DNA of 8,971 nt from a virus (IMGVR_UViG_2602041905_000014); one strand, 5' to 3'; counted from the stretch's first letter, positions 2,550 to 8,971 are shown. Numbers and translations: made by a program. The notes: generated by a model not told the origin, from the letters alone.

Positions 2550-2688
2550 TTTTCTCATTTAGTGTTTTTTGTAGTTCGGGAGTGTTCGTGATTGTTTGTG
2601 TATTTGTTTGATATACAATGATTTAATTGGCTTTCTTGTTTGTTGCTGTTCGTTGTTGTTTGCCGAGCTTCAGCGAAATGTGTGGTCA

Positions 2689-2712
2689 GTTGTGTGGTCA
2701 GTTTTTTGAGGC
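2689..2712 (+). repeat. Perfect 12-bp tandem direct repeat (TGTGTGGTCAGT x2) upstream of int
   Basis: Read directly: 2689-2700 and 2701-2712 are identical. It lies in a T/G-rich region with several TTGTTTG-like motifs between the junction and the int start. Confidence 0.8.
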
Positions 2713-2738: not shown

Positions 2739-3959
2739 GTGGGAAAAGCACTAAACAAACTGAGCGATTCAACGTTAAAAAAATTGGTGGCTGTCCAGGC
2801 AGAAAAAGAGCGTTTTTACTCCGACGGGGGCGGGCTGGAGATTAAACACTCAAAGGGCGGCAAATTAACCTGGTATTTCCGGTACCGAACGGGAGGCCGT
2901 GAGGTTGCCGCAGAGCGGTTAAAGCTGGGGGCTTACCCTGAATTGTCGCTGAAAGCCGCAAGGGAAAAACGCACACTGTGCCGGGCATGGCTGGCTGAGG
3001 GTAAAAACCCCCGTTATGAGTTGTGCGCCACAGTACAGGAAGCACTAAAACCCGTTACGGTGAAGGAAGCGATTAACTACTGGCTGGAGGAATATGCGAA
3101 GGATAACCGCAAAGATTACATAAAGCTGGTGCAGCGTATGGATAAGCACATCATTTGCCATATTGGGGCAATTCCCCTTGATAAGTGTGATACAAGGCAG
3201 TGGATCGCATGTTTTGACCGCGTACGAAAAAAAGCACCAGTAGCAGCGGGCCATGTCATGCAGACATGCAAACAGGCGCTAAAGTTTTGCCGCAGGCGGC
3301 GCTACGCGTTTAGCAACGCCCTGGACGATTTGATCGTTACTGATGTGGGTAAGAGAGCAGAAATCCGCGAGAGAGTGCACAGCAACAGCGAACTAAAAGA
3401 AATTCTACGCGCTATTGATGGTGATGTGTTCGCTCCCTATTACAGTGCGTTAATGCGCTTGTTAATTGTGTTCGGGTGCAGAACGGCAGAGATCAGACTT
3501 TCAGAGATCAAAGAATGGGATCTGAAAGAAATGTTGTGGACAGTGCCAAAAGAGCACAGCAAAACGAAGGTAACAATATTCCGACCTATTCCTGATGGTA
3601 TTTTGCCGTTCATTCAGAAGCTGGTGGAGCAAAACGCACACACTGGGTTATTACTCGGCGAACTGAAAAAAGATACCACGGTGGCGCAATATGGACGAAA
3701 TGCGCATAAGCGGCTTAAGCAGGAACACTGGACGCTGCATGATTTCCGACACACGTTTACAACTATGCTGAATGATTTAGGTGTCGATCCGCATATCGTG
3801 GAGCACATCACAGCGCATCAGATGCCAGGTCAGCAAAAAACCTATAACCATTCACGCTATTTGCAGGCGAAACGGGACGCACTGAATCTATGGGTTGAGC
3901 GTCTTGATGTGATTGCAGGATATAATGAAAATATTGTGATATTGAGAGGGATACAATGA
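2739..3959 (+). CDS. int: Tyrosine site-specific integrase (phage P4-type), 406 aa, GTG start
   Basis: N-terminal arm-binding-type region (YSDGGGLEIKHSKGGKLTWYFRYR). C-terminal catalytic signature HDFRHTF, then HxxxH and the tyrosine in TYNHSRY. GTG start with an AAGAGG Shine-Dalgarno motif 8 nt upstream. Confidence 0.9.
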   Translation: MGKALNKLSDSTLKKLVAVQAEKERFYSDGGGLEIKHSKGGKLTWYFRYRTGGREVAAERLKLGAYPELSLKAAREKRTLCRAWLAEGKNPRYELCATVQEALKPVTVKEAINYWLEEYAKDNRKDYIKLVQRMDKHIICHIGAIPLDKCDTRQWIACFDRVRKKAPVAAGHVMQTCKQALKFCRRRRYAFSNALDDLIVTDVGKRAEIRERVHSNSELKEILRAIDGDVFAPYYSALMRLLIVFGCRTAEIRLSEIKEWDLKEMLWTVPKEHSKTKVTIFRPIPDGILPFIQKLVEQNAHTGLLLGELKKDTTVAQYGRNAHKRLKQEHWTLHDFRHTFTTMLNDLGVDPHIVEHITAHQMPGQQKTYNHSRYLQAKRDALNLWVERLDVIAGYNENIVILRGIQ

Positions 3960-4810
3960 CGAAAAAAGTAAATAGTAAAAAAGATTTACCAAAGTCATTT
4001 GATTTAGGCAAATATGATTGCCTAGAAAACTTGTCGGATAAAGATCTATTTCGCCAATTATATTGGCGACAAGATGATTTAACAATGAAACATTCTGAGA
4101 TGCCTGAATATGGATTTATGTTTGGTGCTGAATACCCGTTGCATAATAATTACGGGGATCCATTTGGAGAGCTGAAAGAAGACGATTGGTTTTGTGATAA
4201 ACAAAAAGAATATGACCATAAAGTGCAACCGAAGTTAATTGAGCTAAGTTATGATGATGGAATTAAACCTGTAACAAGGTTTGATATATCAATGATTAAT
4301 AAACTGACTGCGGAAAGAGGATATTGGAAGGATAAACCAATCATCATAGATAATGAGATGGTTGGAAGTTTAATATCAGAAGATAATGGGATGTTTTGGG
4401 CTGTGATGCGTGAACCAGTGAATCTCCTTTCTGATACATTAGATAATATGCTTGTTTCTGTTGACTTACTACATAACAGAGATGATGAGTTGATTGAAGC
4501 GTTTACAAAACTATTACCAAAATGGCGTAGTGAACTTTCAATTGTTGAGCCAGACAAACCAATTGCAGGAAGTTGGGAAAGCATACGACGTAAAATTATT
4601 GATTATAAGATAATCCCATTAATTGACTTATTATCTTGGGAGTTGTCTACAGATAGAAAAATTTCATTAGGGGTGCTTGCCGTATCTTTGTACCCTGATG
4701 GTGAAAAGGACACCTTTGCTATTGCTCAGACTGTAAAACCTTTCTTAGAAAAAATAATGCGCAGCGATTCTTTAGAAAAAATAAGAAAAATGTTATCTAA
4801 TGAAAATTAA
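3956..4810 (+). CDS. Hypothetical protein, 284 aa, acidic, no recognisable motif; AT-rich gene translationally coupled to int
   Basis: Its ATG (3956-3958) overlaps the int TGA (3957-3959) as ATGA, with a GAGAGGG Shine-Dalgarno motif upstream. A long uninterrupted ORF whose base composition is visibly more AT-rich than the flanking int and alpA genes. Confidence 0.7.
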   Translation: MTKKVNSKKDLPKSFDLGKYDCLENLSDKDLFRQLYWRQDDLTMKHSEMPEYGFMFGAEYPLHNNYGDPFGELKEDDWFCDKQKEYDHKVQPKLIELSYDDGIKPVTRFDISMINKLTAERGYWKDKPIIIDNEMVGSLISEDNGMFWAVMREPVNLLSDTLDNMLVSVDLLHNRDDELIEAFTKLLPKWRSELSIVEPDKPIAGSWESIRRKIIDYKIIPLIDLLSWELSTDRKISLGVLAVSLYPDGEKDTFAIAQTVKPFLEKIMRSDSLEKIRKMLSNEN

Positions 4811-4913: not shown

Positions 4914-5138
4914 ATGAATCAAAATACACAATTTCAATCACTAACAGATCGCGTAATTCGTGAGGATGAATGTCGTAAGTTAACAGGCGTCAGCCGTACT
5001 ACACGCTACGAACTGGAGAAGAAAGGGGGCTTTCCGTCTCGCCGTAATCTTGGGGGGCGTTCTGTAGGCTGGTTGCTTTCCGAAGTTATGGACTGGGTGC
5101 AAAGCCGTGACCGCGTTAATTCAGGTAAGGCAGCCTAG
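4914..5138 (+). CDS. alpA: AlpA-family phage transcriptional regulator (MerR-like HTH, excisionase-like), 74 aa
   Basis: The translation (LTDRVIREDECRKLTGVSRTTRYELEKKGGFPSRRNLGGRSVGWLLSEVMDWV) has the AlpA-family HTH pattern. Its size and its position near the integrase are typical of P4-like islands. Confidence 0.85.
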   Translation: MNQNTQFQSLTDRVIREDECRKLTGVSRTTRYELEKKGGFPSRRNLGGRSVGWLLSEVMDWVQSRDRVNSGKAA

Positions 5139-5354
5139 GGGGGAGCTATGACACATAAAACAAAGGCGACCGGGGGCGGTCGCCAGTGGCATAACACTAA
5201 ACTTGAGCATATCCAGAATACCAGGTTGTCGGCTAGTGGGCAATGCTATCAGTCTGGCTCGATTCGCTGCCATGCCTGCAATGAGCGTATTTTCCTAGAA
5301 TACTCTTTAAGGTACTTCTCAAGGATAAACGCACATGGTGCGAATCTCTCCGGT

Positions 5355-5576
5355 TCATGTTCGTTTACCGCATTTTTGCGTTGTTTTTTCTTGGATGAGG
5401 ATAATTTCTNNNNNNNNNNGACGCTGGCGGTATTCAACTTCTCGCTTTAATGCTGCTGTTACAAACTGCCCTGTACTTTCACCAGGCATTTTTACCGCCT
5501 CAACATTGTTCATAACTTCATGCGGAACCCTTGCCGCAACTGTTTGTGATTTTGCGTTTACTGCTTTTGTCGCCAT
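5355..5576 (-). CDS. Putative ribbon-helix-helix (Arc/MetJ/CopG-like) DNA-binding regulator; the 3' end is uncertain because the frame crosses the N gap
   Basis: Minus-strand ATG at 5574-5576 with an AAGGAG Shine-Dalgarno motif 8 nt upstream. The N-terminal 52 aa (MATKAVNAKSQTVAARVPHEVMNNVEAVKMPGESTGQFVTAALKREVEYRQR) fit a beta-strand plus two-helix RHH layout. It is divergent from the operator-bearing promoter region. Confidence 0.5.
   Translation of the reverse strand: MATKAVNAKSQTVAARVPHEVMNNVEAVKMPGESTGQFVTAALKREVEYRQRXXXXEIILIQEKTTQKCGKRT
5410..5419. other. Assembly gap (run of 10 N)
   Basis: Ten consecutive N characters. The true length and sequence are unknown, so every reading frame crossing it is unreliable. 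Confidence 0.99.
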
Positions 5577-5625
5577 GTTGTGTACTCCTTACAAAAAACA
5601 AATGCAGTATGCAGGAAAAAAAATA

Positions 5626-5677
5626 AGTGTTCAACACTTGACGTGTTTAACACCTAGGCTTAAATTGGTGTTTAACA
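5626..5677. promoter_or_regulatory. Operator/promoter region: three 11-bp palindromes GTGTT-N-AACAC overlapping a sigma70-like promoter
   Basis: Palindromes at 5626-5636 (GTGTTCAACAC), 5642-5652 and 5667-5677 (both GTGTTTAACAC). TTGACG (5637-5642) plus TTAAAT/TAAATT about 16-17 nt downstream (around 5659-5665) form a plausible rightward promoter with the palindromes at the -35, spacer and start region. Confidence 0.65.
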
Positions 5678-5775
5678 CCTTGTTGATGCAAGGTGCAGAA
5701 ACGACGAAACCCGGCAGTGCGCTAACACTAACCGGGCTTCTAACCACCAACGATAGCAGAAGTATCGAGGTAGCT

Positions 5776-5979
5776 ATGTTAAATCATACCACACACCCGC
5801 AAGGGCGGGACTCGCACAACCTGAATAAATTCATCTGGCGTTTTATCGCCCTGAGCACGGCACAACCGCGCGTGATTCACATCGTGGCCACCAGCGAACA
5901 GGAAGCACGCCAGCAATCCCCGGCTGGCTGCGTGATGATATTCGCCGCCCGTATTCGTCAGGGGGTGTGCCATGCCTGA
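5776..5979 (+). CDS. Small hypothetical protein, 67 aa, first gene of the rightward operon; possibly of the Icd-like family seen in P4-like prophages (recollection, unverified)
   Basis: ATG at 5776 preceded by GAGGT, in frame with the tail of the gap-spanning ORF 5335-5979. Its stop overlaps the start of the next ORF. Confidence 0.4.
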   Translation: MLNHTTHPQGRDSHNLNKFIWRFIALSTAQPRVIHIVATSEQEARQQSPAGCVMIFAARIRQGVCHA

Positions 5980-6292
5980 TATGTCAAATTACCAGTACCT
6001 GATTAATCCGCATTTTAACTGTGAGCATGATATTGCTAAAAAGGTTTATTCCGCTGCGGATGGGGCTACTGACAATATATCAATGGGTATTGCGTCAATT
6101 GGTAGCCTGATGTGGCATGCGTCAGAAAATGAGGACTATGACGAAAAGGCTATGCGCATTGATATGGGTAATATCGGTTTGTTACTGGCAATGCTTGGGC
6201 AGTTTGATATTTCGTTACGGTGCACCATTGAAAATGCCGCAGATGCATTAAATGCCATAAAGAAAGCGAATACTGATTCAAATCGGGGATAA
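5972..6292 (+). CDS. Hypothetical protein, 106 aa
   Basis: ORF whose ATG (5972) overlaps the end of the upstream small ORF, same orientation as the replication gene. No motif recognised. Confidence 0.5.
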   Translation: MPDMSNYQYLINPHFNCEHDIAKKVYSAADGATDNISMGIASIGSLMWHASENEDYDEKAMRIDMGNIGLLLAMLGQFDISLRCTIENAADALNAIKKANTDSNRG

Positions 6293-6298
6293 ATAATC

Positions 6299-6598
6299 AT
6301 GAGAACATATTTATCTGGCTTGACTGCCAGCGGTTATGCACACCCCAAAATTATCCCCGGCGCTATTTATCTGGATAAGAACGGTAACAGAGTAACGGTA
6401 AAAGAACTGATGTTTGACCGTGTGTATTTTATTCGTGATGGCTATTCATTTCATAGTTCGCTGAACGTGGAGATCTTTATTAGCAGATTCAGGCGGGAAA
6501 TCCCGCTTTCCAGAAATAATCATGTGTCATGTATGGATGTTGATAAAAAACTACAGGAACTGAAAAACATGATTGCCGCGTGGAGAGAGCAGAAATGA
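6299..6598 (+). CDS. Hypothetical small protein, 99 aa; resembles the DUF4222-type small proteins of P4-like prophages (recollection, unverified)
   Basis: ATG at 6299 is 6 nt after the previous stop. Its TGA (6596-6598) overlaps the ATG (6595-6597) of the helicase gene as ATGA. Pattern Y-D-x-x-G-x-RV-V ... DRV-F-R-GY. Confidence 0.55.
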   Translation: MRTYLSGLTASGYAHPKIIPGAIYLDKNGNRVTVKELMFDRVYFIRDGYSFHSSLNVEIFISRFRREIPLSRNNHVSCMDVDKKLQELKNMIAAWREQK

Positions 6599-8412
6599 AA
6601 AAAGCGCCAAATTTAAAACACCAGCCGCGTGACAAAATGACGGAAGTCATCATTTTTGCGGGTAGTGATGCGTGGGCACATGCGAAGCAGTGGCAGGAAC
6701 AGGACGGGCGACTGGCAGGCGATAACGTGCCACCTGTCTGGCTTGGAGAGCAACAACTTGCCGAACTGGACAACCTGCAAATCGTACCGGACGGACGCTA
6801 TCGCGTGCGTCTCTATCAGGCGGGGTTATTGCGTCCGGTGCTTGTTAATACCATCGGGCAGAAACTGGCAGCGGCAGGTGTCAGGGATGCTGATTATTAT
6901 CCTGAAGGAATGCACAGCCAGAAACGGGAGAACTGGCACGAATATCTGGAACGTGAACGGGCAGAGCTGGCGGAAAAGAAAAAGGTAGTTGAACTGCCTG
7001 TAAAGAAAAAAGAGCGGGTAAAAGACGATAACGCTTCATCACTGGCGCTTAACCAGATGGGAGCAAGTCAACGCGGCGAAGTTCTCCTGGCACATTATGG
7101 CGGTGAACTGGCGATTCATGCTGACTCTGACACTGTTCACCATTACAACGGCGTTGTATGGGAGCCAGTACAGGATAAAGAATTACAGCGAGCTATGGCA
7201 CAGATTTTCATTGATGCGGAGATCAGCTATTCGCAGAACGCCATTAAATCGGCGGTCGATACCATGAAGTTAAGTTTGCCTGTAATGGGGAATACAGCCC
7301 GTAACCTGATTGGATTCAGTAACGGGGTATTTGATACCAGAACAGGTAATTTTCGGGAGCATAACAAAAACGACTGGTTGTTAATTGCCAGTGAATTACC
7401 TTTCAGCCCACCAGCAGAGGGGGAAACGCTGGCAACACATGCGCCGAATTTCTGGAAGTGGTTACGCCGTTCGGTGGCTGAGAATGACCGCAAGGCGGAT
7501 CGCGTACTGGCTGCATTATTCATGGTGCTGGCGAACCGGTACGACTGGCAGTTATTCATTGAGGTAACAGGTCCAGGGGGAAGTGGTAAAAGCGTGATGG
7601 CGGAGATTTGCACCATGCTGGCGGGTAAGGCCAACACAGTATCGGCAAGCATGAAGGCGCTGGAAGATGCAAGGGAACGCGCGTTAGTGGTTGGCTTTTC
7701 GCTGATTATCATGCCGGATATGACCCGCTACGCTGGTGATGGGGCAGGGATTAAGGCTATTACAGGCGGTGACAAGGTGGCAATTGACCCGAAACACAAA
7801 GCCCCCTACTCAACGCGTATTCCGGCAGTAGTGCTGGCGGTTAACAATAACGCCATGTCATTCAGTGACCGCAGCGGGGGGATCTCACGTCGTCGGGTGA
7901 TATTCAATTTTTCGGAAGTTGTACCGGAGAACGAACGTGATCCAATGCTGGCCGAAAAAATAGAAGGTGAGCTGGCGGTAGTGATTCGCCATCTGCTTAC
8001 ACGGTTTGCTGACCAGGACGAAGCCAGACGCCTGTTATATGAGCAGCAGAAATCTGAAGAAGCACTGGCGATAAAGCGAGAGGGGGATTCGCTGGTGGAC
8101 TTCTGCGGCTATCTCATGGCGTCGGTAATGTGTGATGGCCTGTTAGTGGGTAATGCTGAAATTGTGCCATTCAGCCCACGCAGGTATCTCTATCATGCCT
8201 ATCTGGCTTATATGAGGGCACATGGGTTTGGTAAACCTGTAACACTGACGCGCTTCGGTAAAGATATGCCGGGGGCAATGGCGGAATATGGCAGGGAGTA
8301 TATGAAACGGAAAACGAAGCACGGTTTGCGTTCAAACGTGACACTGACGGAGGAATCAGAAGACTGGATGCCATCATGTGTATCGGTCACTAATGACGAT
8401 AGCAAAAATTAA
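6595..8412 (+). CDS. P4 alpha-like replication protein: P4-family primase C-terminal / D5-like SF3 helicase domain with a C-terminal origin-binding region, 605 aa from ATG 6595 (the track's GTG at 6580 is less likely)
   Basis: Walker A motif TGPGGSGKS inside the segment DWQLFIEVTGPGGSGKSVMAEIC, which is characteristic of P4-type primase-helicases. GGAGAGAG Shine-Dalgarno motif 5 nt before ATG 6595. Cognate-looking iterons lie immediately downstream. Confidence 0.85.
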   Translation: MKKAPNLKHQPRDKMTEVIIFAGSDAWAHAKQWQEQDGRLAGDNVPPVWLGEQQLAELDNLQIVPDGRYRVRLYQAGLLRPVLVNTIGQKLAAAGVRDADYYPEGMHSQKRENWHEYLERERAELAEKKKVVELPVKKKERVKDDNASSLALNQMGASQRGEVLLAHYGGELAIHADSDTVHHYNGVVWEPVQDKELQRAMAQIFIDAEISYSQNAIKSAVDTMKLSLPVMGNTARNLIGFSNGVFDTRTGNFREHNKNDWLLIASELPFSPPAEGETLATHAPNFWKWLRRSVAENDRKADRVLAALFMVLANRYDWQLFIEVTGPGGSGKSVMAEICTMLAGKANTVSASMKALEDARERALVVGFSLIIMPDMTRYAGDGAGIKAITGGDKVAIDPKHKAPYSTRIPAVVLAVNNNAMSFSDRSGGISRRRVIFNFSEVVPENERDPMLAEKIEGELAVVIRHLLTRFADQDEARRLLYEQQKSEEALAIKREGDSLVDFCGYLMASVMCDGLLVGNAEIVPFSPRRYLYHAYLAYMRAHGFGKPVTLTRFGKDMPGAMAEYGREYMKRKTKHGLRSNVTLTEESEDWMPSCVSVTNDDSKN

Positions 8413-8425
8413 ACTTATGGAATAA

Positions 8426-8648
8426 CTGTTCACCACTGTTCACCCCGTCATAAATGTCTTTTATATCATTATATTATAGGGTGAACAGTTATTTATGAAC
8501 TGTTCACCAAACTATTCACTGTTCACCTTTTTGATTGTTTATTGAGCTGCAAGGGTGAACAGTGGTGAACAGTTGGTGAATAGTTTTTGTGAAACTGTTC
8601 ACCCCTTAACATTATGAATTGAAAGAGAAAATAGCAAAAGGTGAACAG
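8426..8648. repeat. Iteron cluster (putative ori or crr of the P4-like replicon): about 9 perfect and 2 degenerate copies of CTGTTCACC / GGTGAACAG in both orientations
   Basis: Perfect copies at 8426-8434, 8436-8444, 8480-8488 (reverse), 8500-8508, 8519-8527, 8554-8562 (reverse), 8564-8572 (reverse), 8595-8603 and 8640-8648 (reverse). Degenerate copies at 8511-8519 and 8575-8583. The TGTTCACC octamer is the type I iteron bound by P4 alpha. Confidence 0.85.
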
Positions 8649-8971
8649 GTGAAGGGTTAAAATACAAAAATTTTATTACAGCATGGAATATTAAGTTTTA
8701 GCCGACAGGTAGTTAGCCATAAGAGGATATTTGTCGCTTAGTATTACGTACATAACAGCAAACACTTTTCTGGTTTGCTGGATTAATAGATAAGCGCTAT
8801 AAGTTAGTTAGTTTTGAAAAATTTATTGAATAACTCTAAGCTTTCAGGATGTATATATTGAGTAGGGTAACTGATACGTTGTGAGCGTCCAATTTTTATT
8901 GTGTTCTTTTTCGTCTTCCCAAAAAATAGATTCTTCCATGTTAAAATGTTTCCGTGATTATATTTATTGTC

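Follow-up and report, generated by a model that had tools for sequence, protein, structure and literature searches.

The analysed window, an 8,971-nucleotide stretch of DNA (IMGVR_UViG_2602041905_000014), begins with E. coli chromosomal genes (yehA, rcnB, rcnA, rcnR), followed by an integrated element whose genes and control features are listed in Table 1. Between alpA and the icd-like gene lie a short leftward operon headed by a small YlcI/YnfO-family gene, a divergent rightward promoter (PR) carrying three exact GTGTTNAACAC sites, and, on the minus strand, a structured RNA antisense to the icd-like translation start. The element is about 11 kb long and continues beyond the window with a HEPN gene, a prohead-protease/major-capsid fusion, a DUF1441 protein and small ORFs, ending before thiM. 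With int, alpA and a primase-type replication gene in this order, no lysis or tail genes and a 13-bp duplication at its ends, it is a PICI-type phage satellite with a capsid gene of its own, sharing its layout with the model element EcCICFT073.

Table 1. Features of the element within the window (positions counted from the first nucleotide of the window)
Position	Strand	Feature	Sequence or supporting evidence
2739-3959		Integrase	
3956-4810		DUF6387 protein	
4914-5138	+	alpA (AlpA-family regulator)	Pfam Phage_AlpA, 4.8e-16
5165-5184	-	Intrinsic terminator of the leftward operon	GGCGACCGCCCCCGGTCGCC followed by TTTGTTTTAT; 8 pairs, 7 G-C; no T-run on the plus strand
5249-5409	-	Visible part of a second small ORF (59 aa), function unknown	Start codon masked; 6450-6629 in locus L001 (NZ_CP051711)
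5410-5419	.	Run of 10 N	Masks 99 real bases with the ylcI stop codon and the start of the second ORF
5420-5576	-	Visible part (52 of 59 codons) of the YlcI/YnfO-family RHH-like gene, candidate repressor; ATG at 5576	6687-6866 in locus L001; WP_000201462.1
5585-5590	-	Shine-Dalgarno motif of the ylcI-like gene	AAGGAG (complement)
5606-5634	-	Inferred leftward promoter PL	-35 TTGAAC (5629-5634, inside O1), 17 bp, -10 CATACT (5606-5611); 8 of 12 matches
5627-5637	.	Operator O1	GTGTTCAACAC
5638-5666	+	Rightward promoter PR	TTGACG (5638-5643), 17 bp, TAAATT (5661-5666); 9 of 12 matches
5643-5653	.	Operator O2, in the PR spacer	GTGTTTAACAC
5668-5678	.	Operator O3, over the expected PR start site	GTGTTTAACAC
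about 5696-5776	-	SymR-like cis-antisense RNA, about 80 nt	Hairpin 1, 5743-5774; hairpin 2 (terminator), 5706-5740
5776-5979	+	icd-like gene (67 aa), first gene of the PR operon	NCBIfam phage_ICD_like, 71 bits; RefSeq annotation
5783-5791	-	Inferred extended -10 of the antisense RNA, inside codons 3-6 of icd-like	TGgTATGAT
5972-8412	+	Rest of the PR operon: 106-aa ORF, DUF4222 protein, D5-type primase/helicase (6595-8412)	

Gene boundaries and promoter architecture

The preliminary description of this locus, a small RHH-like regulator divergent from an operator-laden promoter that drives the operon ending in the replication gene, is supported in its core, although the 3' boundary it gave to the regulator gene is wrong. 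A megablast search found identical sequence in many complete E. coli genomes, with 1990 bp spanned by 1901 query bases, and the 1.9-kb region has matches in 1524 of 5426 complete E. coli genomes. In NZ_CP051711 (locus L001) the minus-strand gene is 59 codons long, encodes MATKAVNAKSQTVAARVPHEVMNNVEAVKMPGESTGQFVTAALKREVEYRQRRKAKEQE and stops inside the masked stretch; RefSeq annotates it as a YlcI/YnfO family protein. The frame in the preliminary description ran on across the gap by accident, and positions 5355-5409 belong instead to the second ORF of the same leftward operon. That ORF is not annotated in this strain, but it is 63% identical to the annotated CFT073 hypothetical protein WP_000130015.1; it has no Pfam or PADLOC hit. 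The leftward operon ends at a strong terminator 27 nt from the alpA stop codon, whereas the plus strand has no terminator after alpA. On the other side, icd-like, the 106-aa ORF, the DUF4222 gene and the primase follow on one strand with overlapping or abutting ends.

The three sites are the only copies in the window even when one mismatch is allowed; 0.33 are expected by chance, and 1 of 200 shuffles reached three. No further site with 0-1 mismatch occurs anywhere in the roughly 11-kb element. O2 fills the PR spacer and shares its first G with the -35 hexamer, O3 starts 2 bp after the -10, and O1 abuts the PR -35 while overlapping the -35 of PL. The latter promoter was read from the sequence and falls below the scan threshold of 9 matches, although a TATACT/TATAAT-like -10 at the same distance from the ATG is conserved in relatives.

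The YlcI/YnfO-family protein and its candidate operators

The protein reaches the NCBIfam YlcI/YnfO model (NF041551, YlcI_YnfO_N) at 59.7 bits against a cut-off of 30. Its assignment as RHH-like is supported by an N-terminal strand followed by two helices, by a model that resembles RHH repressors (NikR, MazE4, ParD, TraM and SegB among them), and by an alignment of 40 homologues in which R16, H19 and G32-E33-S34 are invariant, the last three fitting the G-x-S/T/N turn of RHH proteins. It is, however, not a sequence member of any curated RHH family: no Pfam RHH family was hit at E <= 1, homologues gave only insignificant hits (DUF7557, CB_ParB_C, PSK_trans_fac), a profile search of PDB sequences gave nothing beyond noise, Foldseek found nothing, and hhalign against Arc gave 5% probability, although the aligned stretch (RVPHEV against RWPREV) is the expected one.

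The preliminary description held that the protein binding the palindromes (the RHH protein, AlpA or a helper-phage factor) cannot be told from sequence, which is too pessimistic. A scan of one genome per species found 35 loci encoding relatives, and in almost all of them the 130 bp upstream of the gene have the same layout. A site at -77 from the ylcI ATG is present in nearly all relatives, and one at about -100, 22-25 bp (usually 25) from the middle one, in most; these bracket the -10 of a divergent promoter, whose TTGACG next to the middle site is conserved across relatives. A third site lies either just after the -10 of the gene's own promoter or, in the lineage of the window, at -61 over its -35. 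The site itself has the general form GTG-N5-CAC and, across about 40 related elements from more than 10 genera, changes together with residues 1-17 of the protein and not with its helices or with AlpA.

In 38 loci, about 12 classes of residues 11-15 each go with their own repeated site, several classes recurring in three or more genera. QT[VLI]AA goes with GTGTTNAACAC (window, Edwardsiella, Pectobacterium, Kosakonia, Klebsiella), [KR]KLEA with GTGTCAGCCAC (about ten Xenorhabdus species, E. coli, Pectobacterium, Salmonella), KRFDV with GTGTC[CG]GACAC (Leclercia, Pectobacterium, Salmonella), Q[SA]LK[SA] with GTGTGG[CT]CCAC (Dryocola, Yokenella, E. coli CFT073) and QK[LV]Q[AT] with GTGGA[CG]TCCAC (three loci). 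Sites predicted from this code before the DNA was fetched were found in all five cases, namely for the homologues P0044 of E. coli and P0056 of Salmonella, and subsequently for P0035, P0059 and P0036. In a reverse search, 74 IMG/VR contigs carry two GTGTTNAACAC within 4-30 bp; 55 of these have a ylcI-like gene within 200 bp, and all 55 (eight distinct proteins) encode Q-T-(V/I/L)-A-A. The other 19 have different spacings, and the two inspected are unrelated contexts.

The association is confined to the part of the protein that an RHH protein puts into the groove. Among 23 pairs of elements sharing an operator, residues 1-9 are 93% and residues 10-17 are 90% identical, but helix A only 59%, whereas pairs with unrelated operators give 61%, 50% and 55%. 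The recognition code is nevertheless not resolved to single residues: in a Mantel test on raw Hamming distances, residues 10-17 correlate only weakly with operator distance (r 0.16, p 0.04) and residues 1-9 better (r 0.57), and a per-position mutual-information table was saturated by the small sample and was not used. Specificity is therefore claimed for the N-terminal 17 residues as a block. There are also exceptions, as two loci (L029 and L031) share QKIQA but their sites differ at 4 of 11 positions, and loci L004/5 have the QTLAA strand but only one degenerate site and no divergent operon.

A natural chimera, locus L044, is 90-100% identical to the window through the 5' end of icd-like, the RNA leader and codons 32-59 of ylcI, and the leftward terminator is also conserved; identity falls to about 55-65% exactly from the first operator through codon 31, so that only the operators, PL and codons 1-31 are replaced, and its sites read GTGTAAGACAC. 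The only coding sequence inside the swapped block is the N-terminal half of this protein. This bears on the possibility that the repeats are bound by a helper-phage or host factor, or act as RNA hairpins or terminators, and accompany ylcI merely through linkage within a mosaic module. Mosaic elements do inherit neighbouring DNA together, and the terminator scan flags O3 as a weak hairpin followed by T's. However, most specificity classes are not palindromic (for example GTGTCAGCCAC) and so cannot form hairpins, conservation conditional on a shared operator is confined to residues 1-17, and a tblastn search of 50,697 phage records found no close homologue of the protein, the one hit being 36% identical, in a 16.5-kb “induced prophage”. 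This alternative is considered very unlikely.

Recognition of the sites by AlpA is likewise very unlikely. AlpA is encoded about 500 bp away and is experimentally required for induction of EcCICFT073 and EcCIEDL933 (PMC6092414; bioRxiv 2022.09.08.507074). Yet identical YlcI and operators occur with AlpA proteins only 22-26% identical (L037 and L039, and likewise L044 and L045), the window and L044 have 80%-identical AlpA but different operators, L040/41 have the sites but no alpA within the 4 kb examined on each side of ylcI, and no site lies in the alpA promoter region.

A type II toxin-antitoxin pair, with the palindromes serving only as its autoregulatory operator, is equally improbable. 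The protein is 59 aa with no domain beyond the RHH core and a basic tail, the downstream ORF is 43-248 aa in different elements and absent in L045, two of the three sites sit on PR and not on PL, and no toxin family was hit by the nine downstream ORFs screened against Pfam or the four screened against PADLOC.

A SymR-like antisense RNA on the ylcI strand

The preliminary description missed a conserved structured RNA within its own coordinates. Between O3 and the icd-like start codon, all relatives that have an icd-like first gene conserve two hairpins on the ylcI strand. RNAalifold predicts 25 pairs on 31 sequences, 17 of them with compensatory changes; 95.9% of cells are paired, against about 40% when partners are slid, and no shuffle in 500 reaches any of the observed measures. 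The strand is decided by wobble pairs, with 115 G-U cells on the ylcI strand against 3 A-C cells, while the same pairs are only 81% standard on the icd-like mRNA strand. In the window, hairpin 1 is complementary to the icd-like Shine-Dalgarno sequence, and hairpin 2 is followed by the U-rich tail UUUCGUCGUUUCU. The inferred extended -10 box was read from the sequence and sits at the right distance upstream; a TAnnnT box at the same place occurs in most of the 31 aligned relatives, where its first two bases are visible.

The only relevant Rfam match is SymR (RF01809), at 33.6 bits and E 0.0027, below the gathering score of 61; Rfam C4 and isrK do not match. Reciprocally, a covariance model built from the satellite RNAs finds K-12 symR at 35.7 bits (E 5e-7) as the only additional hit in 200 kb. 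The RNA is related to SymR but outside the curated family. That it is a selected RNA structure on this strand is well supported, whereas its expression is inferred. That it blocks icd-like translation and, by polarity, lowers downstream expression, as P1 c4 appears to do for icd-ant, is an inference only somewhat more likely than not.

A candidate early-control switch and its counterparts

Taken together, these results make it likely that the region is the early-control switch of the satellite. In this view, the RHH-like protein is made from PL and, as a dimer, places its N-terminal arm and beta-strand (residues 1-17) in the major groove of the 11-bp sites. The link between protein and sites rests on comparative evidence and is held with high confidence. 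Occupancy of O2 and O3 should block RNA polymerase and keep icd-like, the DUF4222 gene and the primase silent in the integrated state, whereas O1 should give autoregulation; this is inferred from geometry alone, with reasonable but lesser confidence. The antisense RNA would act as a second lock, mopping up leaky PR transcripts. Against this reading, in published work AlpA, not a repressor, is the regulator shown to be needed for induction of EcCICFT073 (PMC6092414).

It is less likely, though not negligible, that the protein binds the sites without being the maintenance repressor, acting instead as a Cro- or Arc-like regulator made after induction to damp or time the early operon, or as an activator of one of the two promoters. 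Sequence alone cannot tell when PL is active, Arc of P22 immI seems to have exactly this role, and AlpA overexpression alone induces EcCICFT073 (PMC6092414), so repression cannot be absolute. On the other hand, the gene has its own divergent promoter, as do mnt and the SaPI stl, rather than lying inside the regulated operon, the sites occupy the spacer and start site of PR, which are positions of repression, and autoregulatory placement of a site on PL is conserved. How the switch is thrown can only be guessed. In the CFT073 element AlpA activates downstream genes, and since no terminator follows alpA on the plus strand, helper-induced AlpA could drive transcription antisense through the ylcI operon and on into the replication operon. 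This is a preferred but speculative scenario, a helper-encoded anti-repressor acting on the RHH protein being the alternative.

The same module is present in EcCICFT073, with alpA, then a 57-aa ORF and ylcI on the opposite strand, then icd-like through primase; its sites read GTGTGGCCCAC and its strand is SQALKARV. The three small genes carry late-numbered locus tags, which suggests that they were added after the original annotation. Phage-inducible chromosomal islands move virulence, resistance and anti-phage genes between bacteria, and in Gram-positive cocci their life cycle hinges on a master repressor that helper phages inactivate. No repressor described for the present class of elements, no paper linking PICIs to an RHH protein, no functional study of YlcI/YnfO/DUF3950 and none of an Icd-like gene with an antisense RNA was found among open-access papers and bioRxiv, and the capsid-forming PICI paper (bioRxiv 2022.09.08.507074) does not use the word repressor; only the activator AlpA has been studied. 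It is tempting, if still tentative, to propose that the YlcI/YnfO-type protein is the long-missing master repressor of Gram-negative PICIs, existing in a dozen or more exchangeable specificity cassettes (operators plus the first 31 codons) that give each satellite lineage its own immunity type, backed by the antisense RNA, with helper-phage induction overriding this double lock. The kind of device is classical, whereas its presence as exchangeable cassettes at the heart of a widespread satellite family appears to be undescribed. These observations also offer a set of small orthogonal repressor/operator pairs, assign a probable function to the uncharacterised YlcI/YnfO family and extend the SymR type of antisense RNA to mobile elements.

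Among known proteins, YlcI (DLP12) and YnfO (Qin) of E. coli K-12 belong to the same NCBIfam family through the N-terminal domain, and K-12 YlcI also shows the RHH sequence pattern; however, K-12 ylcI lies next to the cos/nohD region of a lambdoid prophage, and no GTG-N5-CAC triplet was seen upstream of it by eye. In reading short, sometimes asymmetric units in either orientation, the protein resembles the omega repressor of pSM19035, but compared with omega and CopG-family RHH regulators the unit is 11 bp with constant GTG and CAC ends and not a 7-bp heptad, there are three units and not 7-10, and there is no partition or copy-control context. In map position and logic the gene matches SaPI Stl and the Gram-positive PICI Rpr master repressors, lying between the int side and the replication operon and divergent from that operon (PMC6092414). 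Stl/Rpr are, however, larger helix-turn-helix proteins relieved by binding helper-phage proteins, whereas here the protein is a 59-aa RHH and AlpA is an additional activator.

The nearest analogue in logic is the P22 immI region, where the RHH repressors Mnt and Arc probably act at divergent Pmnt/Pant. There, too, a small autoregulated RHH repressor gene is divergent from the promoter it controls, operators lie inside overlapping back-to-back promoters, and a short cis-antisense RNA (sar) covers a ribosome-binding site in the regulated operon. There is no detectable sequence relationship, though, and the satellite has one RHH gene and not two, three 11-bp sites in place of 17-21-bp operators, and a regulated operon carrying icd-like and a primase in place of an antirepressor. 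P1 immI (c4 RNA, icd, ant) likewise seems to place an icd-family gene at the head of an operon whose later genes would be controlled by an antisense RNA aimed at its translation start, but c4 is encoded upstream on the same strand and acts on repeated target sites, and P1 immI has no RHH protein. Finally, SymR of E. coli K-12 shares the layout of the satellite RNA, with a promoter inside the first codons of the target gene, a length of about 77-80 nt, two hairpins and coverage of the Shine-Dalgarno sequence and start codon, the target here being an icd-like gene at the head of a satellite replication operon and not symE.

Integration site and ends of the satellite

The satellite is inserted inside the aptamer of the thiM TPP riboswitch. 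The 5' half of the aptamer stays next to rcnR (19.7 bits) and the 3' half stays next to thiM (33.3 bits), both below Rfam's 54.3-bit threshold. A 13-bp duplication, GAAATACCCGTAT, lies at the two junctions. In strains that carry the element, thiMD would lose its native promoter and its TPP control. About 100-130 bp inside each end of the element lies a 27-bp exact repeat, CGAAATGTGTGGTCAGTTGTGTGGTCA, embedded in roughly 65 bp of similar sequence, which is possibly a pair of integrase arm-type sites.

Coordinates of the features discussed in this part; L-numbers denote the fetched loci and contigs
Feature	Location	Strand
Left end of the element, in the thiM riboswitch aptamer	window about 2501-2549	
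Right end of the element, next to thiM	L046 13086-13220	
27-bp exact repeat, left	window 2674-2700	
27-bp exact repeat, other end	L046 about 13215-13241	
59-aa ORF downstream of ylcI (start codon masked)	window 5249-5409	minus
Iteron-like repeats, probable origin	window 8421-8649	
HEPN-domain gene	window 8804-8971, continues in L001 10094-10807	minus
Module in Edwardsiella hoshinae NBRC 105699	L002 4790-5174	
Phage_ASH or KilA-N protein behind the regulated promoter	L039 3246-3806	
Phage_ASH or KilA-N protein behind the regulated promoter	L049 3367-3939	
Phage_ASH or KilA-N protein behind the regulated promoter	L040 2967-3875	
Sites beside an integrase gene in an unrelated IMG/VR contig	L092 about 9352-10100	
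symR of E. coli K-12	L055 5823-5922	

Putative origin and accessory genes

Just after the primase gene, an AT-rich stretch holds about ten copies of ACTGTTCACC in both orientations; this arrangement is iteron-like and probably represents the satellite's replication origin. The same stretch produced spurious microRNA hits in Rfam. Between the origin region and the capsid gene, a HEPN-domain gene lies on the opposite strand and may be a defence or toxin cargo of the satellite; it has no PADLOC match. Downstream of ylcI lies an unannotated 59-aa ORF with a basic N-terminus and a conserved ERFAPCAF..LE..LKEY motif, whose homologues occur only in the E. coli elements fetched. In other elements this position is occupied by unrelated ORFs of 43-248 aa, one of them with a weak WYL match, or by nothing; it looks like an accessory-gene slot.

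Occurrence and combinations of the module

A genome of Edwardsiella hoshinae NBRC 105699 (locus L002) carries a module whose protein is identical over 58 residues to the E. coli one, with the same three sites, which points to recent transfer of the satellite between families of Enterobacterales. In some relatives (loci L039, L049 and L040) the first gene behind the regulated promoter is not icd-like but encodes a Phage_ASH or KilA-N protein, and a search of L040 and L049 with the RNA model revealed no antisense RNA there. The RHH/operator unit is therefore combined with different payloads, and with at least four replication-gene types (D5 primase, DUF927, AAA_25 and Toprim). An unrelated viral contig of high G+C content (L092, from IMG/VR) has two GGTGTT[AT]AACACC sites 24 bp apart beside an integrase gene, with a different RHH-looking 92-aa ORF about 450 bp away; this may reflect convergence on the same site, or chance.

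Relationship to the chromosomal SymR RNA

The chromosomal SymR antitoxin RNA of E. coli K-12 is detectably related to the satellite antisense RNAs, being found with an E-value of 5e-7 by the model built here. This similarity suggests that the symE/symR locus and these satellite leaders share ancestry.
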